Assembly: GCA_030645675.1 (NCBI GenBank)
Contig: JAUSLQ010000102.1
Location: 1,727 to 65,726 of the forward strand
Direction: 5' to 3'
Length of the DNA: 64,000 nt
Source of the DNA: Actinomycetota bacterium
GTDB lineage: Bacteria > Actinomycetota > Acidimicrobiia > Acidimicrobiales > Ilumatobacteraceae
Shown: piece after piece, positions 19,342 to 60,479 of the stretch
Layout: each line of letters opens with the position of its first letter
How positions within the stretch are numbered: the stretch's first letter is position 1
Notes under the pieces: generated by a model
Told to the model about the DNA's origin: nothing
The model's input: the letters and a program-made list of their open reading frames with translations, nothing else
Databases searched by the model: none
Position numbers and translations under genes: made by a program

Positions 19342-19360
19342 CCCGGGCGACGATCCAGCG

Positions 19361-43337: not shown

Positions 43338-43345
43338 ACCCCTGC

Positions 43346-43427: not shown

Positions 43428-43451
43428 ACAGGGACATGATCGAGGCGACAC

Positions 43452-45203: not shown

Positions 45204-46121
45204 GTTCAGAGGCCCTCGACCTCGGCGAGCGACACCGAGACGTTCTCGACGCACGTGCCGGCGCAGCAGGAAGCGGACGGCCAGGACGAACAGGTCGATG
45301 ATCAGCAGGCCCACCAGCACGATCAGCAGCAGCGGACGCTGACGCGTGACGTCGCTCGCTGTCACGGCTGGGCCAGCGCCCGAGGCAGTGACCCGCCACT
45401 CGATCTCGCCGAGCGACGGCCCAGGCACCTCTGCCGACACCACCTGCTTCCAGGTCTGTCCTGCCCCGATCACGCCCGGATCATCCAGCGCCAACGTGGC
45501 CAGCAGGTCGTTGCTGCGCACCGCTGCTCCGGCCAACGACACGTGCGAGTAGGGCGCTGTGGACCGGTTCCTCACCGTCACCGTCACCTCGTAACGAGCA
45601 GGCCCGCCCAGGCTGGTGCGGGCCCGCTCCAGGGCGCCCAACGGCGCCGGCCGGGCAACGATCGACACGACCAGCGGGTCGCTCGTCGCCGGACCATCCG
45701 TCAAGGGTTCCACCGGGTGCCCCACCAGGGTGAAGGGCGCCACCGCGATCTCGTCGTTGAGGCGGCTGGAGACACGGACGACGCATGGGCAGCCCACCGG
45801 GGGCACCTCGATCGGCACTTGCACCACCGTCGGCGTGCCGTCGTCGTCCAGCCGCAGGCCGCGGCCGGCCACCATGTTGCAGTCCGCCGACCCGCGACGC
45901 GCCTCGTTCCCGCACACGGTGATCGTGACCGAAGCGGCTTGGAAGCCGTCGATGGTGAGCACCACCCGCTCGTCGGGCGCCAGCTCGGTGTCGGCCATCG
46001 TCACGGTGGGCCCACTGGTGGTGGGCTGCGCATCGGCACCGGCGGCCGCGCCGAGCACCACGCACGACACGAGCAGCGCGAGCAGCGGAACCCACCTGAG
46101 CGGTGACACCAGCGAGTTCAC
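45180..46121 (-). CDS. Secreted, C-terminally TM-anchored beta-rich protein of unknown function (last gene of the surface cluster)
   Basis: GTG at 46121 overlaps the upstream stop as GTGA. The signal peptide is WVPLLALLVSCVVLGAAAGADA. It has two Cys pairs and a C-terminal anchor LLLIVLVGLLIIDLFVLAVRFLLRRH. It overlaps the arsA 3' end convergently by 24 nt. Confidence 0.55.
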   Translation of the reverse strand: MNSLVSPLRWVPLLALLVSCVVLGAAAGADAQPTTSGPTVTMADTELAPDERVVLTIDGFQAASVTITVCGNEARRGSADCNMVAGRGLRLDDDGTPTVVQVPIEVPPVGCPCVVRVSSRLNDEIAVAPFTLVGHPVEPLTDGPATSDPLVVSIVARPAPLGALERARTSLGGPARYEVTVTVRNRSTAPYSHVSLAGAAVRSNDLLATLALDDPGVIGAGQTWKQVVSAEVPGPSLGEIEWRVTASGAGPAVTASDVTRQRPLLLIVLVGLLIIDLFVLAVRFLLRRHVRRERLGVARRGRGPLNSWNGRLG

Positions 46122-47275
46122 GCGGTCTGCGGTTCGCGTGCGCGTTCGGTGTCGCCGGCCACGCTGGCCTCGATGATCGGCGCATGGCGACCGGCAGGAA
46201 CCACGGGGCCACGGTGCCGCCGGTGTGCCCGGCGGGCGAGCACGAACAGGATCACGAGCAGCAGCAGCAGCAGGACGGCGACCGGCGGAACGAACGTGAG
46301 GTCGTCGGCACTCGCCGCCCCCGTCGCGCCGCCCTCGACGGCAAGGGGCGTCACACTCACGGTGGCCGAACCGAGGAACAGCGCCGGCACGTCGCGCACA
46401 TCGGCAGTGACGGTGATCCCTTCGCCGGGCAGCAGCTCCGGCACGTCGGGCAACGCGATCGTCTGTTCACCGATGCCGAAGGGGCCGCCGATCGTCAGCG
46501 TCGCCGAGCCCCCGAGGCGCACGTTGCCGTGGTTCTCGATGCGGTAGGTCACCCGTGCCGAGCCGCCCATGGGGTTCAGCGCGTGGTCGTAGTCGGTCTC
46601 CACGTCGGCGACAGCCAACTCCGGCGAGATCGGGCCGCTCACCCGCACGTACAGCCGGCTACCGATGCGTCGGTCCAGTGTCACCACCTGGCCCTGGTCG
46701 CCGGTGCCCAGCGTCTCGCTGGAGGCGAGGATGGCTCCGGTGTGGTCGCCGGGGCGAGCGTCGACCGGGATGGTGATCGTGATCGGCATGGTCACCTGCG
46801 TGCCGGCCGGCACGGTGATCAGCTCCTGCGGGAACGCCACCCAGGTGCCGACGTCCACCGGCACCTCGTCGCCCGGCAGCAGATCGAACTGGCCTGCGTC
46901 GTTGTTGAACGCGTCTGTCGCGTACACCCGGAACGTCAGCTGCACGGTGCCGTAGTTGTACAGGGTCACCGCATCCTCCAGCACGGCGCCCGGGTCGGCG
47001 ACGTAGGTGAGGTCGGGCCGGTTGCCGGTTCCGTCGGGGTCGGCGGAACCCGCCGGTGCCAGCGCCCAGCTCTCCACCACTTCGGTCGGCGGTGCCTGGC
47101 CGTCCGGCGCCGTCCCGTCGGGTGCGGGTGGCGCTGGTGCAGGGGGCGTCGTCGCGGTGTTCGCGGGCCCGACCATGGGCGGCCCCGCCGACGCAACGGA
47201 CGCCGGCAGCGCAGACGCGAGGAAGGCCGCCGCCGAGGTGGTGGCCAGGAGGACGAGACGTCGCCAGGTGTTCAT
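46118..47275 (-). CDS. DUF916/DUF3324-like cell-surface protein (WxL-locus partner type), C-terminal TM anchor
   Basis: ATG at 47275 (MNTWRRLVLLATTSAAAFLASALPASVASA). The pattern YVADPGAVLEDAVTLYNYGTVQLTFRVYATDAF...GQFDLL...WVAFPQELITVPAGTQVTMPITITIPVDARPGDHTGAI resembles DUF916. A second beta domain follows, then the anchor VAVLLLLLLVILFVLARRAHRRH. Confidence 0.55.
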   Translation of the reverse strand: MNTWRRLVLLATTSAAAFLASALPASVASAGPPMVGPANTATTPPAPAPPAPDGTAPDGQAPPTEVVESWALAPAGSADPDGTGNRPDLTYVADPGAVLEDAVTLYNYGTVQLTFRVYATDAFNNDAGQFDLLPGDEVPVDVGTWVAFPQELITVPAGTQVTMPITITIPVDARPGDHTGAILASSETLGTGDQGQVVTLDRRIGSRLYVRVSGPISPELAVADVETDYDHALNPMGGSARVTYRIENHGNVRLGGSATLTIGGPFGIGEQTIALPDVPELLPGEGITVTADVRDVPALFLGSATVSVTPLAVEGGATGAASADDLTFVPPVAVLLLLLLVILFVLARRAHRRHRGPVVPAGRHAPIIEASVAGDTERAREPQTA

Positions 47276-47373
47276 GGGTTGCGGTGCAGCTTTCGTGGGG
47301 AAACACCGGGGTGGTGTGGAGCGCAGGAGACGCCCCACACCACCTTCGGCGTGTTGGTTGACAGGAGTGCGGG

Positions 47374-49161
47374 TCAGATGACCGTGAAGGTCAGCGTCCC
47401 TGCATAGGTGCCGGAGCGGGCGCTCACCGGGATCAGCAGCTTCACCCGGGCATCGAACTTGGCGATGCCGAGGCCAGCGCCGCTGGCGGCCGAGGAGAGC
47501 ACCTTCGGCGTGGCGAGGCCGGCAGCCGTGTCGGGCAGCACCGGCGCACCGGCCACCACGGTCTGGTCGTAGCCAGCCGAGGTTGCGTCGGAGTCGTCGG
47601 TCACGACCGGGGTCCAGCCCAGGTAGTTGCCGCTGAACGACGAGCCGCCACCGGCGACGACGAAGTCGCTCATCGTGCCGTTGACGGTCCAGCCGGTGTC
47701 GGTGTCACGGGTGTCCGAGACGGTGACCTGGTTCAGGCGGCCGCTGGCCGTGTAGTACTGACCGGCGAGCGGGCCGCTGGTGACCAGCTGGCTGGTGCCC
47801 AGGTCGAGACCACAGCGGGTCGGGTACGTCGGGCTGGACGGGCTCGGGTAGTTGACGAACTGCGGGTCGGGCAGGCCGGCCGAGTTCAGCGGGGCGGTGC
47901 CCACCTGGTCGGCGGAGGCCAGCTCGGCGGGCAGCGACGCGAAGCCGGGCGAGGCGGGCTCGATCGGCAGCGCACCGTACACACCGCAACGCTGGGTCAG
48001 CACCAGGGCGCCGGCCGGGCGAACCACGGTCACGTCCTGGATGATGTTCTGCGCGGCGAGCGGCACGGCCGAGACCGACGCCGAGGTGCCGACGTACGGG
48101 GCCGGGTGGGTCGGGGTCACGGTGTACGTGTAGTTCGTGCCGGCGGTGAGGCCGGTCACGTCAAACGTCGTCGCGCCGGCGGCTGCCGTGAACGGCGAAC
48201 CGGCCACGACGGGGCTGACGGCGATCGTGTAGCCGGTGGGGGCCACACCCGTGGGCGTCACCCAGTTGAGCGTGACGGCACCAGTGCCGGGCACCGCAGC
48301 CAAGCCCGTCACCGCAGGGCGGGCGCCCGGGTTTGGGGTACCACTGACCACGTTCGACACCGCGCTGCCACCGACCGAGTTGGTCGCGATCAGCGACACG
48401 GCGTACGACGTGCCGTTGACCAGGCCGGTCAGGGTGAACGAGGTGGCGCCGGCCGCGAGGGGCAGGGTCACCGTCGGGCCAGCGGTCGGGACGGCCGTCA
48501 CCGTGTACGACGTGGTGGCGGGCACCGACGTCGAGTGGGTGAACGTGCCGGCCAGCGTCTGATCACCAGCGGTCAGGGTGCCACCGAGGACCGGAGCCGC
48601 AGGGACTGCGCCGTAGGCGTAGTCGATCTGGGCGGGGCCACCCGCAGCGTTGGTCGTGATGGTGATCGGGGCCGTCCAGTAGCTGACGGTCGCGCCGGCG
48701 AGGGTGCAGGCGAAACCGACCGTGTAGGCACCGGCGGGAACGAACCCGGGGGCGAACACGTTCATGGCGACTGCGGGGATGCCGGTGATGAGGCCGGTGG
48801 TGACCGCGGTGTTCTTGTTGATGACCGGGGTACCAGCGGCGAACATCGGCTGGGTGAAGGCAGCGCCGCCCGAAACCGGGCCCGATGCGTTGTAGGTCAG
48901 GGTTGCCGGGTCGACCGACGAGGCAACCATGAACGTCTGCCACTTGTAGCCACCCGACGCCGAGTCACCGGGGCACACGGCACCGGAGGGGGGCAGGAGG
49001 GTGATGCTGGTGGCACTGTTGCCGGTGAGCGGCGACACCGTGGCGGCGCCGTTGGCCGGGGTACCGGGCGGCAGTGCCGCAGCACTGGACGCGAGAAGGG
49101 CGACAGAGGCGATGGCAAGTGTTGCCACCCCTGCTGCGACCTTGGTGATGGTGGTACGCAT
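47374..49161 (-). CDS. Secreted protein: N-terminal unassigned two-Cys domain (paralog A), two fibronectin type III-like repeats, C-terminal WxL-like domain
   Basis: ATG at 49161 (MRTTITKVAAGVATLAIASVALLASSAAA). FN3-like segments are TSYTVTAVP...LTGLVNGTSYAVSLIATN and TGYTIAVSP...VTGLTAGTNYTYTVTP. The C-terminus reads VSDTRDTDTGWTVNGTMSDF...GNYLGWTPVV...GTYAGTLTFTVI, resembling a WxL domain. Confidence 0.65.
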   Translation of the reverse strand: MRTTITKVAAGVATLAIASVALLASSAAALPPGTPANGAATVSPLTGNSATSITLLPPSGAVCPGDSASGGYKWQTFMVASSVDPATLTYNASGPVSGGAAFTQPMFAAGTPVINKNTAVTTGLITGIPAVAMNVFAPGFVPAGAYTVGFACTLAGATVSYWTAPITITTNAAGGPAQIDYAYGAVPAAPVLGGTLTAGDQTLAGTFTHSTSVPATTSYTVTAVPTAGPTVTLPLAAGATSFTLTGLVNGTSYAVSLIATNSVGGSAVSNVVSGTPNPGARPAVTGLAAVPGTGAVTLNWVTPTGVAPTGYTIAVSPVVAGSPFTAAAGATTFDVTGLTAGTNYTYTVTPTHPAPYVGTSASVSAVPLAAQNIIQDVTVVRPAGALVLTQRCGVYGALPIEPASPGFASLPAELASADQVGTAPLNSAGLPDPQFVNYPSPSSPTYPTRCGLDLGTSQLVTSGPLAGQYYTASGRLNQVTVSDTRDTDTGWTVNGTMSDFVVAGGGSSFSGNYLGWTPVVTDDSDATSAGYDQTVVAGAPVLPDTAAGLATPKVLSSAASGAGLGIAKFDARVKLLIPVSARSGTYAGTLTFTVI

Positions 49162-49226: not shown

Positions 49227-50414
49227 TCAGAGCTGGCCGCTGATGAGGCTGCCCTTGGTGGCGGTGGAGCCGCAGCTCGGGTGCACCAAGAAGCCGAAGG
49301 CGTTGATCGTGGCGGTCGCCGAGCACAGCGCCGACGTGGGGCCCGAGAACAAGGTCTTCAGGTCGTCGTTGCCGAAGGCGCTGGTGATCACCGAGGTCGG
49401 GAACACGTTGTAGACGTTGCGCCCGAAGACGGAGTCGCCGAAGAAAGCGGCAGCGGGCACCAGGTTCGGGGCAACGCCAGTGACCGGCGAGCCGAGGTTG
49501 ACGCCCGAGCCGTTGTTGCTGATCGAGCCCATCAGTGCGGCTGCGTTGTTGCCGGGGGCGACACCGTTGGCCTTGGACACGAACGAGCCGGCCGAGAAGC
49601 CGATGACGACTTGGTCACCGGAGTGTCCGGGCAGGGCAGCGAGGGCATCGCCACGAGCCTGCAGTTCGTCGCCGTGGTTCTCCTGGGCGCGACCGAGCAG
49701 CGCGTTGCACTCGGTGGTGGCCGTGTTCTCCGCCGAAGCCGAGGCCGTTGTCACCGTGTTCCAGAAGGCGTAGGTGCCCGAGCTGGTCTGGATGCCGCAG
49801 GGCACGATGCGCACGCCGGCGATCACCTGCGGACCGGTCGTGAACAGCGAGGTCAGCTCGGCGCGGGTCAGGCTGGCGACCGGGCTGCCGGCAGCCCGGT
49901 AGTAGGCGAAGCTCATTCCGTCACGGCCGAACGGGATGTAGGTGAGGTCGGTGCCGGTGTCGCCGCTGGCCGGGCCGCTCGACGAACGAGCGAACTCCAC
50001 CAGACCGGAGACGTCCTGCACGCCACCGCAGGCGGCGCTGCCGTACAGCGTGCCGTCGATCGCACGGCTGAGCGCCCGGCGACCGCCAGTGGAGCCGTTC
50101 GGGCGGGCGAACGTCGGCCCCCCGACCTTGGGGGTGATGCAGTTGTCGGACACGCCGGCGGGCGGGGTGGCGTCGAACGAGATCACCTGGCGGGCACCCG
50201 AGGCGGTGCTGCTGTGGATCGGGGTGTAGTAGTCGCCGTTCGTGAAGCCCGTCATCGCGTTCATGACGTCTTGCGTTGTGTCAGAGCCGACGCCCACGGC
50301 AGCGGTCAGCTGCTTCGGGTCGGCCGAGGCGGAGCTGCCGGTGAAGGCGGCTCCCAGGCTGGCGGCGAGGGCGACGGTGAGAGCGAGTCGCTTCGTGGTG
50401 GATGAGTGCAACAT
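49227..50414 (-). CDS. Secreted periplasmic-binding-protein-like (type 2 PBP / PstS-superfamily-like) protein
   Basis: ATG at 50414 (MLHSSTTKRLALTVALAASLGAAFTGSSASA). GVGSDTTQDVMNAM and later FGRDGMSFAYY and VVIGFSAGSF resemble PBP_like_2 proteins. The assignment is tentative. Confidence 0.5.
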   Translation of the reverse strand: MLHSSTTKRLALTVALAASLGAAFTGSSASADPKQLTAAVGVGSDTTQDVMNAMTGFTNGDYYTPIHSSTASGARQVISFDATPPAGVSDNCITPKVGGPTFARPNGSTGGRRALSRAIDGTLYGSAACGGVQDVSGLVEFARSSSGPASGDTGTDLTYIPFGRDGMSFAYYRAAGSPVASLTRAELTSLFTTGPQVIAGVRIVPCGIQTSSGTYAFWNTVTTASASAENTATTECNALLGRAQENHGDELQARGDALAALPGHSGDQVVIGFSAGSFVSKANGVAPGNNAAALMGSISNNGSGVNLGSPVTGVAPNLVPAAAFFGDSVFGRNVYNVFPTSVITSAFGNDDLKTLFSGPTSALCSATATINAFGFLVHPSCGSTATKGSLISGQL

Positions 50415-50562: not shown

Positions 50563-51930
50563 CTATCCGAAACGACCGTTGACGTAATCGTTGGTGCGTT
50601 GATCCTGCGGCGAACCGAACATCGCCGCCGTCGGCCCGTGCTCGACGATCACACCCGGCGTACCGTGCTCTGCCAGGAAGAACGCACAGCGCGACGACAC
50701 ACGCGCTGCCTGCTGCATGTTGTGCGTGACGATCACGATCGTCACCTCCGCCACCAGCTCCATGATCGTCTCCTCGATGCGTCGCGTCGACGTCGGGTCG
50801 AGTGCGGAGCACGGCTCGTCCATCAACAAAACCCGCGGCCGGATGGCCAGCGCGCGAGCGATGCACAGCCGTTGCTGCTGCCCACCGGAGAGCCCGCCAC
50901 CCGGCTTGCGCAGGCGATCGCGAACCTCGTTCCACAGGCCGGCCTTGGTGAGGCAGGTCTCGACGATCTCGTCCTTCAGCTCCAGGCTTGCCTTCACACC
51001 GGTCAGGCGCAGGCTGGCCAGCACGTTGTCGTAGATCGACATCGCGGGGAACGGGTTCGGCTTCTGGAACACCATGCCGATCTCGCGGCGGGCGTCGGTG
51101 AGCTTGCGTTCCACGTCGTACAGGTCGTGACCGTCCACGAGCACCTCGCCGGCCATCGCCGCCGAGGGGATCATCTCGTGCATGCGGTTGAGGATGCGCA
51201 GGAACGTCGACTTGCCGCAGCCGGACGGGCCGATCAGCGAGGTCACCTCACCGGCCGGCATGTCCAGCGACACCCGGTCGAGCACCTGGTGTGAGCCGAA
51301 CCAGGCGGAGATGTTGCGGGCATCGATGCCGGTCAGCGCGGCCCGCGATGCACTGACCGCCGCGACGATCGGAAGCGTGGCGGTGCCGATCGCGGCCTCG
51401 GGCGCGGCGATCACTTCCGGGGCAGGCGACAACGGCGTCGTGAGCAGGTCGGCGAGCTGCGACATCGACGGGGCGGGTGTTGCTTCCGCGATCGACAGCG
51501 GGACAGCGGCCTGCTTGTCGAGCTGCTGCCACGACTGCTGCTCCCACGACTGCTGCTGACGCACGGCGAGGCCGGGCAGTGCGGCCAACGTGCGGCGGAA
51601 CTCGTCGACGCGGTCGGCCGCGACCGACACGCCGAAGTCGGGAATGCCGGGGACGATCAGGATCGTCCAACATCCCTCGGCGGCGTGCACGACCCCCTGG
51701 ATCTCGTCGGTCAGCCACGACCAGACGATGTCGCCGTCCATGGCGGTGATGCGATGCCTCGCGACGGTCACTTCTGCGGAGTGCAGCTCGGTCACCACGG
51801 CATCGGGCCGGTTCGCTTCTCCCCGCACCAACTGCACCACGGCGGCGTTGGGGAAGAACGCAAGCTCGGCCTCGGCAGCAACATCGTCGCGCCCGCTGGC
51901 CCCCAGGGTGTGCGTCGGTTCGGTGGTCAC
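50563..51930 (-). CDS. pstB: Phosphate ABC transporter ATP-binding protein PstB with an unusual N-terminal extension of about 190 aa
   Basis: The C-terminal roughly 260 aa are canonical PstB: GPSGCGKST, VFQKPNPFPAMSIYDNV, LSGGQQQRLCIARA, LLMDEPCSALDP. GTG at 51930 lies 7 nt after GGAGG, and the frame is open throughout. Confidence 0.85.
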   Translation of the reverse strand: MTTEPTHTLGASGRDDVAAEAELAFFPNAAVVQLVRGEANRPDAVVTELHSAEVTVARHRITAMDGDIVWSWLTDEIQGVVHAAEGCWTILIVPGIPDFGVSVAADRVDEFRRTLAALPGLAVRQQQSWEQQSWQQLDKQAAVPLSIAEATPAPSMSQLADLLTTPLSPAPEVIAAPEAAIGTATLPIVAAVSASRAALTGIDARNISAWFGSHQVLDRVSLDMPAGEVTSLIGPSGCGKSTFLRILNRMHEMIPSAAMAGEVLVDGHDLYDVERKLTDARREIGMVFQKPNPFPAMSIYDNVLASLRLTGVKASLELKDEIVETCLTKAGLWNEVRDRLRKPGGGLSGGQQQRLCIARALAIRPRVLLMDEPCSALDPTSTRRIEETIMELVAEVTIVIVTHNMQQAARVSSRCAFFLAEHGTPGVIVEHGPTAAMFGSPQDQRTNDYVNGRFG

Positions 51931-51979: not shown

Positions 51980-52942
51980 TCACAGGAGGTTCGGCAGCAG
52001 GCGGGCGAACTCGCCGGACGTGGCGAGGCCGACGAGCAGCATCGTGGGCAGGAACACGACCCACGTCTGGGCGTGCCCCCAGCGATGCCACGACCACACG
52101 ACGGCGACCGACAGCGCGATCATCGCCTGCAGCCAGAACGCGAGCACCCACAGCGTGCGGTTGTCGCCGGCCATCATCCGTTCCTCGGCGGGAAGCGCCG
52201 AGAAGCTCAGCACACGGGCAGCACCGATCACGGGTTCACCGACGATCTCGGCGTCGACGCGGAGTACTCCGTCGGGCAGGAAGGCGCTGCCGGCGGCGGT
52301 GACCAGCAGTAGCCGCGAGCCGCCGGACGCGAGCGTCGCGGGCGCCGGGTCGCCTTCCCGGCGCACACCGATGACGGAGTACTCGAACGTGCCCTGGCCG
52401 GTGGTGACGCGGATGAGGTCGTTCTCCTGCAACTCGCCGAGGCGCGCGAACGGCCCGCCGAACGCGGCACGCCGGCCGTACACCACGCTCGAGCCCACCT
52501 GGCCGGGCAGCGGGGTGTCGCGGCGATGCCCGGGCCCGTCGAACAGCACACTCGCGCTCGTGCCCTCGCCGATCACCTCGCTCACGCCGATCGAAGGGAT
52601 CTCGAGGAAGGTCACCGGCGTGCCCGCCGCGAGTGCGTAACCGGCTCTGTCGACGGGGCCGATCGCCGCCGTACCCTTTGCCAGCTGCTCACGGAACGCG
52701 TCGAACCGGCGGCCCTGGGCCGCTCGGTGCTGCAACGAGCTGAGCAGCACGAGTTGGATCAGCAGTGTCGCAGTCAGCACGAACACCAACAGCAACATGG
52801 CGCGCACCAGCTGCAGCCGAGGGCTCAGCGGCGGCGCCTCGGCGCGGCTCACCGCCGTCGGGCGAGCGCCGCTGCGCGGGCGCAGACGCGCCCACACCGA
52901 GGTCGGTTCCGACCGCGGCGGAAGCGTGGCCGTGGCGGTCAT
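51980..52942 (-). CDS. Sortase-fold (class E-like) membrane protein apparently lacking the catalytic His and Cys; extra C-terminal TM segments
   Basis: ATG at 52942 overlaps the upstream stop as ATGA. LEIPSIGVSEVIGEGTSASVLFDGPGHRRDTPLPGQVGSSVVYGRRAAFGGPFARLGELQENDLIRVTTGQGTFEYSV aligns by eye with class E sortases (GPGHYPGTALPGQxGNxAxAGHRxTYGAPFxxLxxLxxGD). AGHR is replaced by YGRR, and LTTCHP by LLLVTAAGS. Confidence 0.6.
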   Translation of the reverse strand: MTATATLPPRSEPTSVWARLRPRSGARPTAVSRAEAPPLSPRLQLVRAMLLLVFVLTATLLIQLVLLSSLQHRAAQGRRFDAFREQLAKGTAAIGPVDRAGYALAAGTPVTFLEIPSIGVSEVIGEGTSASVLFDGPGHRRDTPLPGQVGSSVVYGRRAAFGGPFARLGELQENDLIRVTTGQGTFEYSVIGVRREGDPAPATLASGGSRLLLVTAAGSAFLPDGVLRVDAEIVGEPVIGAARVLSFSALPAEERMMAGDNRTLWVLAFWLQAMIALSVAVVWSWHRWGHAQTWVVFLPTMLLVGLATSGEFARLLPNLL

Positions 52943-53952
52943 CGTTGCTCGGGTGGGAGCACTCGCAACGGCCGCCCGAGCAGGATGACCATGCGGCCGA
53001 ACACCAGCAGGAGCACGCCCCAGACCAGGAGCGGCAGCGGCGACGAGCCGGTGGCGGAGAGCGAGCCGCCACCGTTCCCACCGGCACCCGAGCCCACGCG
53101 CACCGTGGTGGTGGTGCCCGACCCTGAACCCACCAGGGTCGTGGTGGTGGCGCGCACCGTGGTGGTGGTGCCGCCGCCGGCTGTCGTGGTGGTGGTGGCG
53201 GCCGACGTGCTCGTCGTGCTGCCGCCCGCCTGGGTGGTCGTGGTCGTGGCCGCCGTCGTCGTGGTGGTGGCGCCTCCACCGCCACCGCCGACGACGGTCC
53301 ACGTGATGCCCGAGGGCACATCGCCGGCGTCAGCCGCGAACGTGAGCTGCACGTTCCAGTACTTGTCGAGCTGTGTGGCCGAGGCGGCGCCCAGGGTGCA
53401 GGCAAAGCCGAGGTTGTAGGTGCCAGCAGGCACGATGGAGGGGCCGCTGGCGCCGAACAGCGCGAACGACATCGTCGGGAGGCCGGTGAGCAGGCCGGGG
53501 CCGCCCGCCTCGCTGGCGACGGCGGTGTTCCTGTTGACGACCGGGGTGCCCCCCGAGCTGAACATCGGCTGGCGGTAGCTGGCGCCGGTGCCGGCCGGCA
53601 TGGGGCCACTGGAGTCGAACGTCAGCGTCGCCGGGTCGACGCTGGCGGGCACCATGTAGCTCTGGATCTTGTAGCCACCAGACGTCGTGTCGCCGGTGCA
53701 CGAGGCGCCCACCGGCGGGGTCATCGCGAAGACGGTGGCGCTGCCGCCGCTGTTCAGCGGTTGGCCGGCGGTGGGCGAACCGGGCGGCACCAGGATCTGG
53801 ATGGCTCCCCCGTTGATCGGAGCGGCTGCGGCGGTGCCGGCGGGGCCCGCCAGCATCGCCACGCCGGCCACCAGCATCACAGTGGAGACCACCGCTCCGA
53901 GGGCGGCGACGTTGCGCGCGAAGCGGCGCCAGTACGTGTTCAGGCGGATCAT
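52939..53952 (-). CDS. Secreted surface protein: two-Cys domain (paralog B), Thr-rich linker, LSATG sortase-type sorting signal
   Basis: ATG at 53952 overlaps the upstream stop as ATGA. It has a signal/anchor segment, a conserved domain (ASCTGDTTSGGYKIQSYMVPASVDPATLTF...PAGTYNLGFACT...YW), and poly-Thr linkers. The C-terminus is LSATG followed by a hydrophobic stretch and RMVILLGRPLR. Confidence 0.65.
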   Translation of the reverse strand: MIRLNTYWRRFARNVAALGAVVSTVMLVAGVAMLAGPAGTAAAAPINGGAIQILVPPGSPTAGQPLNSGGSATVFAMTPPVGASCTGDTTSGGYKIQSYMVPASVDPATLTFDSSGPMPAGTGASYRQPMFSSGGTPVVNRNTAVASEAGGPGLLTGLPTMSFALFGASGPSIVPAGTYNLGFACTLGAASATQLDKYWNVQLTFAADAGDVPSGITWTVVGGGGGGATTTTTAATTTTTQAGGSTTSTSAATTTTTAGGGTTTTVRATTTTLVGSGSGTTTTVRVGSGAGGNGGGSLSATGSSPLPLLVWGVLLLVFGRMVILLGRPLRVLPPEQR

Positions 53953-54695
53953 CGGGGCTCCTTGGAGGTGGTCGTACGTCGGCGCGCCCGCACTTTCCAG
54001 ACGAGACCGCCCAGCACCACCAGCACCGCGGTGATCACGGCGGGAGCGATCCAGCCGGACGAGTCGTCGGAAGCCGGGGCGATGGCGGGTGCGTCGGCGA
54101 GGCGCCAGGTGAGCTGCGCGGGAGCGTCGTCGGGGTTGGCGGTCAGCACGATCACCGTGTCCCAGTAGGTCGCGGTTTCACGGAAGTAGGTGCAGGCGAT
54201 CCCGATGCGATAGTCGCCGTCGGGCAGCGTGCCGGGGGGGAACACGGCGAAGCTGAGGGCTGGGATGTCGGAGATCACACCGGGCTCGCCTGCCTGGTCG
54301 TTCGCGCGTGTGAGCATGTCCGTGAACGGGCTGGTGTTCAGTTCGTACAGCGCGTACTGGTGAAGCCCCTCGGGGCCGTTCGCGCCGTACTTGATCGTGC
54401 CCGGGTCGTCGGCCGCGGGGATGATGAAGCTCTGCACGCGCCACTGGTCGTGCAAGCTGTCGCCCGGGCACGCCGCATCGGCCGGAAGGGCCAGCGAGAA
54501 CTCAGTGGCGCTGCGGCCGCGGACGATCGCGACGCGGTCGTTGACGCCGACCGGTTGTACCTCGCCGAGGTCGATCGGGTCGCCGGCGACTGCCCACGCG
54601 ACGGAGCCGGCGAGACCCGAAGCGAGGAGCAGGGCCACTGCAGCAGCGGCACTGCGACAGCGCACGCGCGGCCGCACACTCGGTGTCAATGTCAT
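53949..54695 (-). CDS. Secreted, TM-anchored protein consisting mainly of the two-Cys domain (paralog C)
   Basis: ATG at 54695. The signal peptide is AAAAVALLLASGLAGSVAWA. The domain reads AACPGDSLHDQWRVQSFIIPAADDPGTIKY...PDGDYRIGIACT...YW. The C-terminal anchor is APAVITAVLVVLGGLVWKVRARRR. Confidence 0.6.
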   Translation of the reverse strand: MTLTPSVRPRVRCRSAAAAVALLLASGLAGSVAWAVAGDPIDLGEVQPVGVNDRVAIVRGRSATEFSLALPADAACPGDSLHDQWRVQSFIIPAADDPGTIKYGANGPEGLHQYALYELNTSPFTDMLTRANDQAGEPGVISDIPALSFAVFPPGTLPDGDYRIGIACTYFRETATYWDTVIVLTANPDDAPAQLTWRLADAPAIAPASDDSSGWIAPAVITAVLVVLGGLVWKVRARRRTTTSKEPR

Positions 54696-54697
54696 GT

Positions 54698-57385
54698 TCA
54701 GCTGCCTCCGCCGGTGTCAGTGGCCCGCTCGCCGGCGCGGCGCCGGCGCGGGCGCTTCGTGATCTCCAACGCACCCAATGCCGAGCCGAGAGCCGTCACG
54801 CCCAGGGTGGGCACCGCGTACCGGCTCCGGGCCAACCCGGCGAACGGGGTCAGCACGGTCGGCGGCGAGGGGGCGGGCTCCTCGGAGTCTTCCTCGTCGA
54901 CGACGACCTGGGTGGTGGTGGTTGCCGCCGTCACCGTCGTGGCCGTGACGGTGGTGGTGGAGGTGGCCGGCAAGGTCGCGACCGTCGTCGTCGTGCGCCG
55001 CGGGGTTGTGGTCACCGTGCGGGGCACCGTCGTGGTGGTGGCCGGCGGATCGGGCGTGTCCACGAGCGTGCGCACCCGGTCGGCAGCGGTGGCCGCCTGC
55101 GTCTGGAGCACAGCCGGCAGCGGGGCGTAGCCCCGCGGCAGCAGGCCCAGCTCGAGGCCGGCCACCTGGCCGGCACCGGTGGCGTACTCGATGAACGCGG
55201 CGTACTCGCTACGGGCTTGGGTGTCGAGCGTCAGCGGCGAGATGGCAGCGTAGGTGAGGGTGGTCAGCGGGTAGGCAGTGGGAGCGCCGGCCGTGGGGGC
55301 AGGCTCCAGGAAGGTCTGCTCGGTGCGGGGTGCCATCGAGGCGACGCCAGCGGCGAGGCCGGCTCCGTCGGCCGCGATGAACGTGCGCTCGGCACCGTTG
55401 TCGCCGGCGCGGCTGAGACGAGCGACCTGCAGCCCGAACGTCGCCGCCGACGGCGAGTCGGTGAGCGACAGGATCGCTCGCCGGCCGAGGAACTGGGGCA
55501 GCTCGCGGCTCCACACCTCGCTGGCCGCCTGGGCGAACGGGTTGTCGACGATGCGGGCCCCGACCGCAGCGGTGCGCGTGACGAGCGCAGCGTCGGCGAA
55601 GCTGCGCGAGTACGGCATCCAGTCGGTACCGCACAGCAACGGGGGAACGATCGCGTTGCCCGCACCGCGGGCGGGCGCCTGGTAGCAGTACGGGTCGGCC
55701 TTGGGGAACGACGAGGGCAGCGGGTCGCCGAACGCGATACCGGTGGGGTTCACCGACGCCGAGGTCGAGTACCACGAGTTCACCTTCATGCCGTACTCGT
55801 CGGGTTCCCCGTTCAGCCAGGCGCGGGCCTCGGGGTCGGCCAGCAGCCACTCCCAGACCTGCAACGCAGCGTCGGAGTTGCCGGCCGGCAACTGCAACCC
55901 ACTGAACGAGCGTCCGTCGGCGATCTGCAGCTGCGTGAACTCGGGGTTGAAGCGCAGGAAGTCGGGGTCGAGGCCCATGTGCGACGGGTTCGCCGCCATC
56001 CACGGGTAGTTCGGTGACTGTTGGATGGTCACCTGCTCGCGGTACGACTGAGTGAGCAGCTTGGCGACCAACCGCGGGGTCAGGTTCAGCTGGGCGACGC
56101 GCACACCGGCGAGTTGTTGCTCATCGGCGGGCGCGTCGGTCCGCGGGTTGCGTTCGATGTTGAAGCCGATCACCAAGCCCGAGAGGCTGATCGGTGCGTA
56201 CACGACCGGCTTGTGCGGGTCGGCGTTCGCCGTCGACAGCGGGCGCGAGACCACGATCATCCCGGGCGCGCCCTGCGTGCCCGACACCAGCTGCTGGCGA
56301 GCAGAGGCGTCGCTGATCGGCGCATACGAGTACGGGGGCAGCGTGCCGCCTGAGCACAGCGCAGGCTGCCAGCTGGCCACCGCGGTGAGCGCGGTCTCCG
56401 AGCCGGCGATGCGCCGCTCCTGGTCGGCCAACGAGCACGGGGAGTCGACCGGGTTGAACTCGATCGGGATCGCGATGCGGTTGGCCCATGCGGTGGGCGA
56501 CAGCGGGGAGGTGGCCACACCGTACTGCTCGGGGGCTTCCGCGAAGGGGGTGCCGACGTTCTCCTCGGAGGGCGAACCACGGGGCACGATGACGATCCAG
56601 CACTTCGGGATCTTCGGCTCGGCACCCTCCACCGGCTGCACCTTCTGCCCGCACCCGAGGCCCGACGACTGCACGCCGGTGAGCAGCTGCATCAGCTCGG
56701 CACCCGTACCGTCGGGGCCAGTGACGCCACCGGCGATCTCGTTGGTGGTCACCAGGTTGAAGTACGGGTTGAGCCAGAAGTTGCCGCCCACCACCGACGG
56801 GTTGAACGAGGGGTCGGTCTGGATGTCGACGACGGTGCCGCTGACTGCCCGGAAGGGCAGCCACACGTTGGTGGTGCGGGTGTCGAGATGGCCCACCGTG
56901 GAGTCGAAGTTGGGCCAGTCCGAGCGGGAGATCACCCTGCTGAGCGAGAAGCCACTGGGGTAGAGCCCGCCGGGCAGGCCGCCGTAGGTGCCGGCGACCG
57001 CGCCCTGCACGCAGTGCTCGGGGGGCGGGCCGGGATTGCCGGGCACCGAACCGTCGTCGTCGCCCCAGCACTGCATCAGCTGCAGGTAGTGGCTGCCGAA
57101 CCGGCCGGGCCCGGCGATGGTGGGTTCGCCGCCGGTCCAGGTGACCGACACGGCCTGGTTGGTGAGCTTCGCGGTCTGGTTCACCGTGATCGCCAAGCCG
57201 GCGTACTGCCCGCGACCGTTGACGGTGAGCACCGAGTCGGTGGCGGGCAGGGCGGTGTCGGTGCCCTGGCTGCCGGCCAGCGTGGCGGCCCCGGCGTCGG
57301 GCACGGCGAGCGTCGCCAACGCAGTCAGCGTCGCCACTGCGGCCACGGCGCTCAACAGCACCACCGATGTGCGCCGCGAGTTCAT
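54698..57385 (-). CDS. Large (895 aa) secreted, TM-anchored protein with a PstS-like (PBP type 2) C-terminal half and Thr-rich stalk
   Basis: ATG at 57385 overlaps the pstS stop as ATGA. The signal peptide is VVLLSAVAAVATLTALATLAVPDAGA. The C-terminal part AYPLTTLTYAAI...EYAAFIEYATGAGQ...LLPRGYAPLP mirrors the PstS C-terminal consensus. A poly-Thr/Pro stalk, a TM segment and KRPRRRR follow. Confidence 0.7.
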   Translation of the reverse strand: MNSRRTSVVLLSAVAAVATLTALATLAVPDAGAATLAGSQGTDTALPATDSVLTVNGRGQYAGLAITVNQTAKLTNQAVSVTWTGGEPTIAGPGRFGSHYLQLMQCWGDDDGSVPGNPGPPPEHCVQGAVAGTYGGLPGGLYPSGFSLSRVISRSDWPNFDSTVGHLDTRTTNVWLPFRAVSGTVVDIQTDPSFNPSVVGGNFWLNPYFNLVTTNEIAGGVTGPDGTGAELMQLLTGVQSSGLGCGQKVQPVEGAEPKIPKCWIVIVPRGSPSEENVGTPFAEAPEQYGVATSPLSPTAWANRIAIPIEFNPVDSPCSLADQERRIAGSETALTAVASWQPALCSGGTLPPYSYAPISDASARQQLVSGTQGAPGMIVVSRPLSTANADPHKPVVYAPISLSGLVIGFNIERNPRTDAPADEQQLAGVRVAQLNLTPRLVAKLLTQSYREQVTIQQSPNYPWMAANPSHMGLDPDFLRFNPEFTQLQIADGRSFSGLQLPAGNSDAALQVWEWLLADPEARAWLNGEPDEYGMKVNSWYSTSASVNPTGIAFGDPLPSSFPKADPYCYQAPARGAGNAIVPPLLCGTDWMPYSRSFADAALVTRTAAVGARIVDNPFAQAASEVWSRELPQFLGRRAILSLTDSPSAATFGLQVARLSRAGDNGAERTFIAADGAGLAAGVASMAPRTEQTFLEPAPTAGAPTAYPLTTLTYAAISPLTLDTQARSEYAAFIEYATGAGQVAGLELGLLPRGYAPLPAVLQTQAATAADRVRTLVDTPDPPATTTTVPRTVTTTPRRTTTTVATLPATSTTTVTATTVTAATTTTQVVVDEEDSEEPAPSPPTVLTPFAGLARSRYAVPTLGVTALGSALGALEITKRPRRRRAGERATDTGGGS

Positions 57386-59127
57386 GCCGGCTCCTTGCTG
57401 GAGAAGCGACGCCAGGCCAAGGCCGGTGTGAGCACAAGGCCCAACGTCAGCGCGATGACGAGCAGCAGCAACACGGTCGAGCCGCCCCACCCCGACGGCT
57501 GGGGAAGCACGGTGGTGGCAATGGCGCCCGCGGCGCCGCCGGTCGCAGTGCCGCCACCCGTGGGTGTGCCCGACGAACCGCCAGCGCACAGCCCCGTGTC
57601 GGCGTCGCAGCCCTGGCCGCCGGTCCCGGCGTCGACTCCGCCGTTCGAGCCCGGCAGGGTGGTGCCGGTGGCGGCGCCCGGCACCGAGCCCCCTGCAGGC
57701 GTGGAGCCCGCGGCGGGGGTGCTGCCACCGGCCGGGGTGCTGCCACCGGCAGGCGTGGTGCCACCGGCAGGCGTGGTGCCGCCGGTCACCGGCCCGGCGA
57801 GCACATCGGTGGGTACGTTCGACAGGCCGCCGGTGCCGTTGGGGCACTGGCTGACACTGCCCTGCTGATCGCACGCCTGTGGTTGTGGCGCGTTCTGGGC
57901 GAGCACGTTGGTGCCGTTGGCGGAGAACGTGGGGTTGTCGCACGAGGCGATGTCGATGTCTTGCACGACCACGCCGGGGATCTTGCGGATCTGGTCGAAG
58001 CTCGCCTCCACCAGGTTGATCGGCATCGGCGAGTAGCCCACCGACGCCCACTGCTGCTGCGCCTGGCACAATGCGTAGTAGGCGAACGCCCCCACGGTGG
58101 CGCCCTTGTCCTCGTTGAACTGGCCGGCCACCTTCGTCGGCACGATCAGGTAGGAGTACGACGACAGCTGGTAGCTGCGCGGGTCGGTGTCGTTGTACAC
58201 GCCCTCGAGCTGCTGGGTGAGATACACCGTCGGGTCGGCCTCGTTGGTGTTGATCCGCGCCTGCAACAGCGACACCGCCACGTTGTCCGGCGTGGGCTCG
58301 GTGTAGTAGCCGGCCTCGTTGAGCACCTTCGCCACTGGGAACTGGGCGTTCAGTGCGTACGAGTAGTTGACGTAGCCGATCGCACCCTCGGCGAATCCCT
58401 GGCTGACGTACCCGGCCACGCCGAGGTCGCCGTTCTGGGCGATCATGCCCGGGATCGTTGGATAGAACGACGTGTTACCGCAGGCCGGCGCACGACCCGA
58501 CCGGTTGCAGAACTCGGTCCACAGCGCCCCGTGCTCCGCGATCATCCACTTCGTGAACTGGGCGCTCGAACCCGACCCGTCGGAACGCACCACCGGCACG
58601 ATCGTGCGGGCCGGCATCGTCAGGCCCGGGTTGTCGGCTGCGATCGCCGGGTCGTTCCACGTGGTGATGACGCCGGTGAAGATCTTGGCGACGTTCTCGC
58701 CCGACAGCCGCAGGTTGGTGACCCGCTTGCCGTTGATCTGCAGGTTGTACATGAACGACGTGCCACCGGCGGTGACCGGGATGTACGCGTAGCTGCCGGG
58801 GGCCGGGTTCTCCGGCGCCGACCCATCTTCCGGCGAGAACTGGAACGGGATGTCGGAGGCCGCGAAGTCGACCGTGCCGTTCAGGAAGTTCCTACGCCCC
58901 GCCGTCGAACCACTGGGGTTGTAGTCGACCGTGATGCCGAACTGGCGCACGTTGACGCGCATCGCGTCGATCGCGTTCGCGGCCCACGACGAGCCCTCAC
59001 CGGAGATCCGCTGATAGCTGAACGATGCCGATGCGATCGGCGGTGAGCCGCCACCGACGAACGACCCGGCGACCAGCGTGGCCGAGACCGCGAACACGAC
59101 GCGGCGCAGGAGTCGAGGCACGCTCAC
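57382..59127 (-). CDS. pstS: Phosphate ABC transporter substrate-binding protein PstS with a Gly/Thr/Pro linker and C-terminal TM anchor
   Basis: GTG at 59127 after AAGGAG; it overlaps the pstA stop as GTGA. ISGEGSSWAANAI, DFAASDIP, VTAGGTSFMYN and RSDGSGSSAQFT are PstS-like. The C-terminus has (GGTTPA)n repeats, LPQPSGW, and a TM segment plus WRRFSSK. Confidence 0.85.
   Translation of the reverse strand: MSVPRLLRRVVFAVSATLVAGSFVGGGSPPIASASFSYQRISGEGSSWAANAIDAMRVNVRQFGITVDYNPSGSTAGRRNFLNGTVDFAASDIPFQFSPEDGSAPENPAPGSYAYIPVTAGGTSFMYNLQINGKRVTNLRLSGENVAKIFTGVITTWNDPAIAADNPGLTMPARTIVPVVRSDGSGSSAQFTKWMIAEHGALWTEFCNRSGRAPACGNTSFYPTIPGMIAQNGDLGVAGYVSQGFAEGAIGYVNYSYALNAQFPVAKVLNEAGYYTEPTPDNVAVSLLQARINTNEADPTVYLTQQLEGVYNDTDPRSYQLSSYSYLIVPTKVAGQFNEDKGATVGAFAYYALCQAQQQWASVGYSPMPINLVEASFDQIRKIPGVVVQDIDIASCDNPTFSANGTNVLAQNAPQPQACDQQGSVSQCPNGTGGLSNVPTDVLAGPVTGGTTPAGGTTPAGGSTPAGGSTPAAGSTPAGGSVPGAATGTTLPGSNGGVDAGTGGQGCDADTGLCAGGSSGTPTGGGTATGGAAGAIATTVLPQPSGWGGSTVLLLLVIALTLGLVLTPALAWRRFSSKEPA
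57699..57790. repeat. 18-bp in-frame tandem repeat (about 4-5 units) encoding the (G-G-[ST]-T-P-A) linker of PstS
   Basis: Direct reading: ggggtgctgccaccggcc / ggggtgctgccaccggca / ggcgtggtgccaccggca / ggcgtggtgccgccggtc. Confidence 0.85.
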
Positions 59128-60479
59128 GAGCTCTCCTTCGACGAGTAGGGAGGGGCTCCAGCGGACAGAGCGATGGGGGCGACCGTCACGTCGCTGGAGG
59201 CGGCGGCGAGGCGGCGGGCCTCGATTCGCTGCAGGTCGCGACTCGATCGCGCCACGGTTCCACGAGCTTGCCGCTTGGAGAGCTGACCCGCCGGGCGACC
59301 GCCCAGCACTCGGGCGATGGAGAACAGGATGAGCACCAGCACCATCAGCACGGCCGCTGTGCCGAAACCGCGTGCCATCTGCTCGGGCTGCCCCGAGCGC
59401 ACCAGCATGTATGCCGTGAGCGGCAGCGAGACCATCGGTCCCTCGTTCGGATTGAGGTTCATTGAAGATGTGAAGCCGGCGGTGAGCAGCACCGGCGCGG
59501 TCTCTCCCACGCCACGGGCGATGCCGAGGATCACGGAGGTGGTGAGGCCCGAGCGGGCGGTGGGCAGCACCACGTGCCAGACGGTGCGCCACTGCGGCGC
59601 CCCGAGCGCCGCCGAGGCCTCGCGCAGGTTGCCGGGCACGAGGCGCAGCACCACGTCGGCGGAGCGGATCATGATCGGAAGCGTCATGATGCTGATCGCG
59701 ATCGACGCCGCGAGGCCCGAGCGTTCGAAGCCGAGGATCAGGACCCAGGTGGCGAAGATGAACAGGCCGGCCAGGATCGACGGCAAGGCGGTCATCGCGG
59801 TCACGACCGTGCGCACCAGCGACGTCAGGCGGCTACGGGTCTCGTTGAGGTACACCGAGCAGGCGATTCCGAGCGGCACCGTGATGACGAGGGAGATCAG
59901 CGTCATGATCAGCGTGCCGACGATGGCGTGCGAGATGCCACCCTTGGTCAGCGGATCGAGCGGGCCGGTGCTGCTGAGGTCGTCGACGTAGAAGTTCGTG
60001 TGCACCAGCGCCTTCACGCCGCGGATGAACACGTAGACGATCACGGAGAACAGCGCGCACAATGCCACCACGGCCGCCGAGGCCATCAGCACGGTCATCA
60101 CCCGGTCGTACACGGCGGGGCGGTTCTCGGTGAGCGACACCACCACCGCGTAGGTGAGGAGGAACACGAGGAAGAAGACGGCGAGGAAGCCGATCACGCC
60201 TTCCATCGACGTGAACCGGCCGAACAGCAGCATCGTCGTCGACAACGCACTGACCAGCGAGCCCAACAGCGGCAGCAACTCGTTCCGCGACCACTTGCGC
60301 ACGGCCCGCCGCACCGCAGGAGGCGCCTCGGGTCCCGGGTGCCCGGCGAGCACCGTCAATGGTGCGGGGTCGTCGGCGAACCGCAGCTCCCCGAACTCGC
60401 CCTCGAACGCCTCGTCGAACGCGTCGCCCATCGAGCGGCTACCGCCGTCATCGGCACTCTTGGTGAGGGTGGAGGTCAT
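59124..60479 (-). CDS. pstA: Phosphate ABC transporter permease PstA
   Basis: 451 aa with KGGISHAIVGTLIMTLISLVITVPLGIACSVYLNE and the EAA-loop region EASAALGAPQWRTVWHVVLP. The start overlaps the pstC stop by 4 nt. Confidence 0.9.
   Translation of the reverse strand: MTSTLTKSADDGGSRSMGDAFDEAFEGEFGELRFADDPAPLTVLAGHPGPEAPPAVRRAVRKWSRNELLPLLGSLVSALSTTMLLFGRFTSMEGVIGFLAVFFLVFLLTYAVVVSLTENRPAVYDRVMTVLMASAAVVALCALFSVIVYVFIRGVKALVHTNFYVDDLSSTGPLDPLTKGGISHAIVGTLIMTLISLVITVPLGIACSVYLNETRSRLTSLVRTVVTAMTALPSILAGLFIFATWVLILGFERSGLAASIAISIMTLPIMIRSADVVLRLVPGNLREASAALGAPQWRTVWHVVLPTARSGLTTSVILGIARGVGETAPVLLTAGFTSSMNLNPNEGPMVSLPLTAYMLVRSGQPEQMARGFGTAAVLMVLVLILFSIARVLGGRPAGQLSKRQARGTVARSSRDLQRIEARRLAAASSDVTVAPIALSAGAPPYSSKESS

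Follow-up and report, generated by a model that had tools for sequence, protein, structure and literature searches.

A conserved sortase homologue that lacks both catalytic residues is encoded within a Pst-like transporter operon of Actinomycetota

In a 64,000-nucleotide stretch of DNA from an Actinomycetota bacterium of the Ilumatobacteraceae (contig JAUSLQ010000102.1, positions 1,727 to 65,726; ~70% G+C over its whole length, and hereafter called the window), the reverse strand encodes at 51980..52942 a protein of 320 amino acids that has Arg in place of the catalytic His of sortases and Ala in place of their catalytic Cys. The open reading frame (ORF) is intact up to its stop codon, and the loss of both residues is family-wide. 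We refer to the product as pseudo-sortase. Sortases are textbook cysteine transpeptidases and are widely used as protein-engineering tools. The pseudo-sortase gene belongs to the core of a conserved operon of 13 genes, which also encodes an ATP-binding cassette (ABC) transporter resembling PstSCAB, together with PstS-like, WxL-like and WxLIP-like proteins. The observation of a pseudo-sortase is robust and, judging from its sequence and surroundings, the fold here probably binds or organizes proteins rather than cutting them.

Both catalytic residues are replaced throughout the family

Column statistics were drawn from two sets of homologues, namely the top 150 representatives of clusters formed at 50% identity, and 167 loci from genomes and metagenomes. 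The best PDB matches of pseudo-sortase, in sequence as well as profile searches, are the class D and E sortases 4D70, 5UUS, 5GO5/6 and 5UTT. In each alignment that these searches displayed, G-N-x-x-x-x-G-H-R of the sortases falls on G-s-S-V-V-Y-G-R-R, which places the catalytic His on Arg157 (codon at 52472..52474, reverse strand; the sortase G-H-R reads G-R-R, G156-R157-R158). This residue is Arg in 146 and Lys in 4 of the representatives; the corresponding counts among the loci are 160 Arg, 6 Lys and a single His. The histidine of the GPGH motif, His139, aligns with the ordinary, non-catalytic GxGH histidine of true class D/E sortases, and its conservation is therefore no sign of a relocated catalytic residue.

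The position of the catalytic Cys is taken by Ala216 (codon at 52295..52297, reverse strand), where the sortase motif LTLxTC reads LLLVTA in this protein and LTLVTA in the family. The β7 consensus of the representatives, R-L-T-L-V-T-A-x-G, is the sortase L-T-L-x-T-C with Ala for Cys. Position 216 holds Ala in 108, Ser in 20, Thr in 8, Val in 5 and Gly in 5 representatives (118, 35, 8, 4 and 2, respectively, in the loci) and Cys in none, and there is no conserved Cys anywhere in the pseudo-sortase domain among the 167 loci. Sequence alignments to solved sortases end near residue 195, and a profile of residues 172-240 alone matched no sortase in the PDB. The placement of the Cys column rests on the LTLxTC/LTLVTA motif, the strand order of the structural model, the Foldseek superposition of the whole domain, and a weak alignment (1.9 bits) in which a broad-family profile brings the QLTLITC motif (C184) of S. 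aureus SrtA onto that of Ala216. In the SrtA sequence used, H120, C184 and R197 fall at the right indices.

The position of the β8 Arg of sortases corresponds to Arg228 (codon at 52259..52261, reverse strand; motif LRVDAE) in the alignments of both sets. Among the 150 representatives, a hydroxyl is retained at position 215 in 146, and both Asp230 and His139 are highly conserved.

The first-pass annotation, made from the letters of the window, had read the AGHR motif as YGRR and the TLxTC motif as LLLVTAAGS, and had proposed that both catalytic residues were lost. Both proposals hold: the alignments to solved sortases, which could have put a His at the catalytic position, gave Arg157 instead (Arg or Lys in 150/150 representatives), and the Cys column, placed as described above, holds Ala216 (Ala, Ser, Thr, Val or Gly across the family). 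Its further remark that the downstream Arg of LRVDAE is retained is correct for the window protein; the residue is clade-specific, with Tyr or Phe in the sister clade described below. In the absence of a thiol, no acyl-enzyme intermediate can form, and pseudo-sortase is therefore most likely non-catalytic.

The sortase barrel is retained and is followed by a membrane hairpin

Pseudo-sortase scores 52.1 bits with the Pfam Sortase profile PF04203 (cutoff 26.6, E = 7e-14) and so passes its threshold, with a match that is confined to residues 113-195, corresponding to profile positions 1-84 of 125. The top NCBIfam model, class_E_sortase (NF033747), gives 57 bits against a cutoff of 160 and is thus below threshold. 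An AlphaFold2 model made with the 150-sequence alignment has a mean predicted local distance difference test score (pLDDT) of 92.9 and a predicted template modelling score (pTM) of 0.85, and supersedes an earlier run on 41 close homologues (pLDDT 63), in which the region 128-162 was unreliable. Based on its strands and on Foldseek, the sortase-fold β-barrel spans residues 100-240 (52223..52645, reverse strand), with strands at 109-115, 120-126, 150-155, 176-181, 184-195, 209-219 (β7) and 222-234 (β8), and with the β7-β8 loop shrunk to a tight turn. Foldseek found 132 matches in the PDB at E <= 0.001, and all 50 of those listed are sortases. The best, C. perfringens SrtD (4D70), superimposes with a target-normalised TM-score of 0.81 and a root-mean-square deviation of 3.3 Å over 170 aligned columns. 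In the model, pseudo-sortase thus retains a complete eight-strand sortase barrel.

The sortase homology that the first-pass annotation had assigned to the 320-residue product is upheld by the PF04203 score, the PDB alignments and the predicted fold. By its fold and its Pfam score, pseudo-sortase counts as a sortase homologue; since it lacks the catalytic features that define sortases and stays below the class E cutoff, it should not be classified with the class E enzymes. Source databases name its homologues "sortase A", "class E sortase" or "sortase domain-containing protein"; mis-annotation of the family under the first two of these names is routine.

Two membrane-embedded regions flank the barrel. 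The N-terminal membrane anchor and stalk (residues 41-89; 52676..52822, reverse strand) form one long helix in the AlphaFold2 model. At the C-terminus, a hairpin of two transmembrane (TM) helices, 261-288 and 290-315 (residues 261-315; 51998..52162, reverse strand), precedes a terminal LLPNLL. The two or three additional C-terminal TM helices anticipated earlier can accordingly be set at two. The hairpin is as conserved as the barrel, and the family shares the C-terminal motifs TLW..LWLQ, W..RWG..Q.W and LLPNLL. The short basic loop between the C-terminal helices, HRWGH, is consistent with a cytoplasmic location of the loop and an extracytoplasmic barrel. The predicted layout is a cytoplasmic N-terminus, TM1 and stalk, the extracytoplasmic barrel, and the C-terminal TM hairpin, with three TM helices in all.

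The family is large and under purifying selection

A search of the protein database gave 1880 matches to pseudo-sortase, the best 120 of which are full length and 59-71% identical, and an exhaustive search of representatives gave 426 clusters (50% identity) at E <= 1e-30. Approximately 30 positions are at least 90% conserved across distant members, including the C-terminal R-W-G loop and the terminal LLPNLL. In close pairs with unsaturated dS (0.15-0.6), dN/dS is ~0.08-0.18, and the gene is therefore under purifying selection. A genome scan with one genome per species yielded at least 488 matches; among the 80 listed, nearly all are metagenome-assembled genomes of Acidimicrobiia (Ilumatobacteraceae, Acidimicrobiaceae and Microthrixaceae).

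MEROPS lists "non-peptidase homologues" for family C60 in generic terms. A natural, conserved, catalytically dead sortase family was not found in the searchable literature, and searches for a natural pseudo-sortase, an inactive sortase, or a sortase connected with Pst, WxL or Acidimicrobiia found no description of either the family or the operon. The family is large, conserved and, apparently, undescribed.

The coupled upstream gene encodes a secreted protein with an LPxTG-type tail

Immediately upstream of pseudo-sortase lies the gene for a 337-residue secreted protein (52939..53952, reverse strand), which comprises a signal peptide, a domain of ~150 residues, a Thr-rich linker and an LPxTG-type tail. 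The ATG of pseudo-sortase and the TGA of this gene overlap as ATGA at 52939-52942, where the reverse strand reads ...CAA CGA TGA CCG..., confirming the translational coupling that had been proposed. A 4-nt overlap is again present in locus L001.

The sorting-signal-like tail (52942..53061, reverse strand) consists of LSATG (residues 298-302), a spacer, a hydrophobic segment and the conserved sequence FGRMxILLGRPxRVxP. In the window protein it reads LSATG-SSPLPLLVWGVLLLVFG-R-MVILLGRPLRVLPPEQR, in agreement with the LSATG, hydrophobic stretch and basic tail described at first pass. A hydrophobic segment followed by a positive tail is thus present, and the tail is atypically long and conserved. 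The first motif position in 77 orthologous tails is Leu (57), Ile (9) or Phe (7), the second is Pro (45), Val (13), Ala (13) or Ser (2), and the third is variable, while the T-G is invariant (77/77). LSATG had been taken for a class E-type (LAxTG-like) signal; however, Pro stands at the second position in 45 of the 77 tails and Ser in 2, which makes LSATG an uncommon form of a motif that reads LPxTG in most of the family, and not specifically one of the LAxTG type. Downstream of the motif, the orthologues share the strongly conserved W..LLLVFGRMAILLGRP.+V. Judged from these alignments, the anchor and tail of the partner are conserved far beyond what a generic stop-transfer or hydrophobic anchor would need.

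A search with a 43-residue profile of the tail returned only 11 short fragments and cannot tell whether other proteins bear it; some source annotations of these fragments read "LPXTG-motif cell wall-anchored protein". We also considered a link between motif position 2 (Pro or not Pro) and columns of pseudo-sortase, of which 261, 121, 249 and 232 ranked highest, but dropped it as confounded by phylogeny. At loci L040, L045 and L074, two consecutive genes each end in the special LPxTG plus FGR...RP tail, from which it follows that the tail has spread between paralogues within the operon.

The ~150-residue domain of the partner is paralogous to domains in two other proteins of the operon, one of 248 residues (E = 7e-26) and one of 595 residues (E = 1e-35), and matched no Pfam family. 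The three proteins (47374-49161, 52939-53952 and 53949-54695, all on the reverse strand) share the signature C.GD...GGY..Q[ST][FY]..P...DP.T. They differ in their C-terminal attachment, which is a WxL-like domain in the 595-residue protein, the LPxTG-type tail in the 337-residue protein and a plain TM anchor in the 248-residue protein.

A sister clade differs in gene order and at the β8 Arg position

A sister clade was recognised from the distant P0230 representative (loci L085 and L086) and from 80 metagenome loci which, from their sample identifiers, are apparently mostly from soil or peat. Its gene order is PstB - PstC - PstA - PstS - 895-residue protein - pseudo-sortase, with a WxLIP-like gene further downstream. 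In this clade, pseudo-sortase is invariably and directly preceded by the gene for the 895-residue protein, a large extracytoplasmic protein that is also part of the window operon, and the two genes overlap. A further arrangement is found in Streptomyces sp. NPDC002574 (L083; NZ_JBIARB010000004.1, a 617-kb contig), where the order is pstC, pstA, PstS, a gene similar to that of the 895-residue protein, a binding-protein/Ig-domain protein, pseudo-sortase and PstB. The motifs of the Streptomyces pseudo-sortase are GRAAAYGGPF and RLVLVTATG. With its reduced operon, this cultured strain makes experiments possible, and it may be the sole tractable host among the loci examined.

The β8 Arg of sortases contacts the bound sorting signal. 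In pseudo-sortase, position 228 is Arg in 77 of the 84 window-clade loci; the 83 sister-clade loci have Tyr (65) or Phe (18) and in no case Arg. Where enough upstream sequence was available, Arg228 goes together with an adjacent LxxTG tail in 64 loci, and Tyr or Phe with its lack in 54. This co-occurrence is suggestive of a link between Arg228 and the partner.

Two side observations concern the sister clade. Its PstB is short (277 residues) and is encoded at the operon's start, ahead of a 177-residue protein with a faint DUF1508 match; no similarity was found between that protein and the N-terminal extension of the window PstB. In addition, sister-clade operons often end with a protein of ~1000 residues that carries an ordinary LAxTG/LPxTG signal (LADTG, LASTG or LAATG; L107 16351-19248, L128 16784-20026, L158 13314-16577), although in this clade pseudo-sortase has no LPxTG gene beside it.

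Proposed function of pseudo-sortase and alternative explanations

From its conservation and gene neighbourhood, we suggest that pseudo-sortase is most likely a non-catalytic scaffold or receptor subunit of an envelope complex around the Pst-like transporter. For the clade of the window we put forward a more specific proposal, which we rate at a little short of an even chance: pseudo-sortase would dock the L-x-x-T-G of its partner in the disabled groove, and the partner's anchor on the TM hairpin. The sortase-like groove (Arg157, Ala216 and Arg228) would hold the L-x-x-T-G of the coupled 337-residue protein, the conserved hairpin would lie against the conserved membrane anchor and the cytoplasmic tail of that protein, and the partner would thereby be kept non-covalently at the membrane beside the transporter instead of undergoing cleavage and attachment to the wall. 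Contacts between the TM segments of a sortase and its substrate have been proposed from molecular dynamics (PMC12746448). The first-pass annotation had also considered a receptor or non-covalent anchor, an idea that fits the invariant T-G, the conserved partner anchor, the TM hairpin and the co-occurrence of Arg228, but which, given the sister clade and Streptomyces, cannot be the sole role of the family. The boldest form of the proposal is less likely than not: inactive sortases would here, for the first time in a natural family, read a sorting signal and leave it uncut, fixing a surface protein non-covalently to a Pst-like transporter in an unrecognised envelope complex, with an array of PstS-like proteins and WxL-like wall binders, that would be widespread in Acidimicrobiia and other Actinomycetota.

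Several observations weigh against docking of the tail. The genes for the 248- and 337-residue proteins are absent from the sister clade, and the Streptomyces locus has no LPxTG partner; docking of an LPxTG tail is therefore not a universal function of the family. The link between Arg228 and the partner rests on essentially two clades and is confounded by phylogeny; it also has exceptions, namely four loci with a genuine tail and Tyr228, and the Streptomyces locus with Arg228 and no tail. The invariant T-G is what the chemistry of cleavage requires, and could point to processing by an active sortase elsewhere. Canonical LPXTG/LAXTG tails are encoded in the flanks of some loci (LPRTG in L064; also L107, L128 and L158), and 13 LPXTG ORFs have been reported for Ilumatobacter coccineus (PMC3910706), so that an active sortase is likely to be present in these organisms. 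The AlphaFold2 prediction covers the monomer.

In a different explanation, pseudo-sortase would be an accessory to an active housekeeping sortase encoded elsewhere, and would capture the LPxTG protein so as to present it at the proper site for cleavage (an adaptor) or shield it from cleavage (a decoy or anti-sortase). An invariant T-G in all 77 tails is what one would expect if the scissile bond matters, and the canonical proteins with ordinary tails in the four loci just named, like the ORFs of I. coccineus, agree with such a role. However, the six-frame ORFs of the window and of ~10 kb around the gene in the other 166 loci (~2.0 Mb) contain no second sortase homologue; each source has one sortase-like gene, in every case the pseudo-sortase, and the family profile used also detects true sortases (E ~1e-15 against PDB chains). 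Furthermore, if cleavage released the partner's anchor and cytoplasmic tail as waste, one would hardly expect them to be so strongly conserved, and the sister clade has no adjacent substrate. We consider an accessory role improbable. A second explanation, also unlikely in our estimation, dispenses with the sorting signal: pseudo-sortase would be a structural subunit of the complex of Pst-like and surface proteins that does not bind sorting signals but might, for example, tether the 895-residue or PstS-like proteins, or bind peptidoglycan or lipid II, and the adjacency of LSATG would be an accident of one clade. The neighbours that are invariant in both clades are indeed pstC, pstA, PstS and the gene for the 895-residue protein, not the LPxTG gene. 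The overlap with the 895-residue gene in the sister clade and the partnerless Streptomyces locus point the same way, and other membrane-anchored proteins of the operon have conserved anchors too. However, this explanation does not account for the ATGA coupling, for the way in which Arg228 goes with the tail, or for the tail's own special, conserved sequence, and the motifs of the sortase groove are still conserved.

Catalysis by other means, which the first-pass annotation had also raised, is very unlikely. Such an enzyme would cleave or transfer the LxxTG protein by another chemistry, through a non-canonical nucleophile such as the conserved Thr215/Ser (or, in some members, Ser216), aided by Arg157 or His139. 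The near-constant hydroxyl at position 215, the basic residue that is always found at 157, the high conservation of His139 and Asp230, and the invariant T-G of the partner could all be accommodated by it. Yet Thr215 (in TLxTC) and His139 (in GxGH) are conserved in true sortases as well, and are inherited structural residues with no new catalytic role; the Cys position is Ala in 108 of the 150 representatives, and also Val and Gly; the β8 Arg is lost in half of the family, and the β7-β8 loop is a tight turn in the model. As to an artefact or a decaying gene, whether through a sequencing error or frameshift, which the first-pass annotation had named as grounds for dropping its idea, or in the form of a recently inactivated sortase, nothing but the missing catalytic residues speaks for it, and it is refuted by an intact ORF that is collinear with hundreds of homologues, by the same substitutions in 150/150 representatives and 167 independent loci, by the low dN/dS and by the confident AlphaFold2 model.

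Comparison with active sortases and with pseudoproteases

Pseudo-sortase shares the eight-strand barrel of the class D and E sortases S. coelicolor SrtE1 (5CUW), S. avermitilis SrtE (5GO5), C. diphtheriae SrtF (5UUS) and C. perfringens SrtD (4D70), with TM-scores of 0.81 for 4D70 and 0.71 for 5GO5. Like these enzymes, it has an N-terminal membrane anchor, its gene adjoins that of a protein with an LPxTG-like tail, and it contains the motifs GxGH..T..PG..G, G-x-R after β4 and L-T-L-x-T on β7. In contrast to them, the family has exchanged His for Arg and Cys for Ala, its β8 Arg is not conserved family-wide, its C-terminal half is no longer recognised by sequence profiles, and its β7-β8 loop is very short. 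Pseudo-sortase further differs from them in its extra conserved C-terminal hairpin of two TM helices, which canonical class E sortases lack, and in its location inside an ABC-transporter operon.

Functionally, the closest analogy is with pseudoproteases such as the iRhoms and Derlins, which belong to the rhomboids and bind clients without cleaving them. Reviews of the pseudoenzyme concept are PMC5106787 and PMC10211241. Pseudo-sortase resembles them in having kept a protease fold, lost the catalytic residues, added a domain and remained strongly conserved. By analogy, it may also bind the TM or juxtamembrane region of a client, as we infer for the 337-residue protein. The fold and the domain of life are unrelated. 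If LPxTG-type tails are bound uncleaved, this would amount to a second, non-covalent use of sorting signals, and pseudo-sortase would be a natural substrate-trapping sortase scaffold.

Genes and organization of the Pst-like operon

Pseudo-sortase marks an uncharacterised 13-gene operon that links an ABC system similar to phosphate transporters with wall-associated surface proteins, in hosts that are abundant, mostly uncultured freshwater and soil Actinomycetota. In the window, it forms a tight array of genes on the reverse strand, from ~62.5 kb down to 45.2 kb; all coordinates that follow refer to that strand. The same order and strand are found in 83 related genome loci, as far as their contigs extend.

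The array starts with a conserved operon protein of 315 residues that carries no assignment, followed by two permeases assigned by PF00528 and synteny, which are PstC-like (352 residues; 60476-61534) and PstA-like (451 residues; 59124-60479). The fourth gene (57382..59127) encodes a PstS-like protein of 581 residues (PF12849, E = 5e-36) with a Thr/Gly-rich linker and a conserved C-terminal TM anchor; its score with the PstS model TIGR00975, 186 bits, is just below the cutoff of 205. This protein ends in LPQPSGWGG...LAWRRFSSKEPA, and orthologues (L005, L010, L042, L043 and L073) have LAQSGG, LSNAGG or LSEAGS, a TM segment and then APALAWR.FS..EP, which looks like a degenerate sorting-signal-like motif before a conserved TM segment and tail.

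The fifth gene (54698..57385) encodes the 895-residue protein, a Cys-rich, TM-anchored extracytoplasmic protein with a remote PstS-like segment, identified by a weak TIGR00975 match, a profile match and synteny. With a profile of its family, M. tuberculosis PstS-1 is matched weakly in its C-terminal lobe (E = 7e-4), and many of the family's Cys residues are invariant. Among 106 homologous tails, the anchor of the window clade reads SR[YF]AVPGLG...ALGALEITKRPRR, and the sister clade has G-x-T ~10-15 residues before the anchor. We considered whether these tails are degenerate sorting signals and rejected the idea; they are conserved by clade (LEITKRPRR in one, G-x-T ahead of the anchor in the other) and are not LPxTG-like. 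The sixth gene (53949..54695), syntenic in 75 loci, encodes the 248-residue TM-anchored paralogue of the N-terminal domain of the 337-residue protein (31% identity by BLASTP). Genes seven and eight (52939..53952 and 51980..52942) are those of the LSATG protein and pseudo-sortase.

Directly downstream of pseudo-sortase is the gene for a PstB-like ATPase of 455 residues (50563..51930), residues 202-455 of which score 339 bits with TIGR00972, just below its cutoff of 343.2. The extension of ~200 residues at its N-terminus matches no family. The tenth gene (49227..50414) encodes a secreted protein of 395 residues that is syntenic in 67 loci; the gene at this position in the sister-clade locus L085 carries a PBP_like_2 domain (PF12849). 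Together with the 581- and 895-residue proteins, the operon thus encodes up to three PstS-like proteins. The eleventh gene (47374..49161) encodes the 595-residue protein, with the paralogous domain at its N-terminus, fn3 repeats (E = 1e-13) and a C-terminal WxL-like domain. Its WxL score (PF13731) of 22.5 bits, and those of the orthologues in L001 and L002 (15.7 and 15.9), are all below the cutoff of 25, and its counterpart in L085 has no WxL match. The twelfth gene (46118..47338) encodes a 406-residue WxLIP-like (DUF916) protein with a C-terminal TM anchor, for which the PF06030 score of 29.0 bits is borderline (cutoff 27.3; orthologues 28.7, 26.9 and 22.4). The last conserved gene (45180..46121; syntenic in 44 loci) encodes a TM-anchored protein of 313 residues. 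No WxL match that could indicate a small WxL protein was found in the 248-, 313-, 315- and 395-residue proteins.

Compared with the phosphate importer PstSCAB, the operon likewise has PstB-, PstC-, PstA- and PstS-like genes with near-threshold equivalog scores, but these scores fall just short of the cutoffs, the PstB has its 200-residue N-terminal extension, the PstS has a linker and TM anchor, and genes for two further PstS-like proteins, for surface proteins and for pseudo-sortase are interspersed among those of the transporter. The operon is also reminiscent of the WxL/Csc clusters of Firmicutes, which encode WxL proteins of a small and a large type together with a WxLIP protein (DUF916-DUF3324-TM) and, in many cases, an LPxTG protein (PMC9772566, PMC10599100). 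In common with them, it encodes a TM-anchored protein similar to WxLIP_PGBD, a large protein with a C-terminal WxL-like domain and a protein with an LPxTG tail. Unlike in those clusters, its WxL matches do not reach the Pfam cutoff, the search for a small WxL protein found none, and the host belongs to the Actinomycetota, whereas >91% of known WxL proteins are in Firmicutes (PMC9772566). It is, furthermore, joined with a Pst-like ABC transporter and pseudo-sortase, a combination of which PMC9772566 and PMC10599100 make no mention.

In one related genome (L002), the specialised operon is directly followed by a PBP_like_2 gene and two permease genes (18659-20960) with which an additional pst operon of the ordinary kind seems to begin, and the specialised system may therefore be additional to a housekeeping phosphate importer. 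In the window, an ORF of 524 residues lies at 41863-43437 on the reverse strand; it has a C-terminal helix-turn-helix of the ArsR type (residues ~450-497) and a long N-terminal region with no family match.

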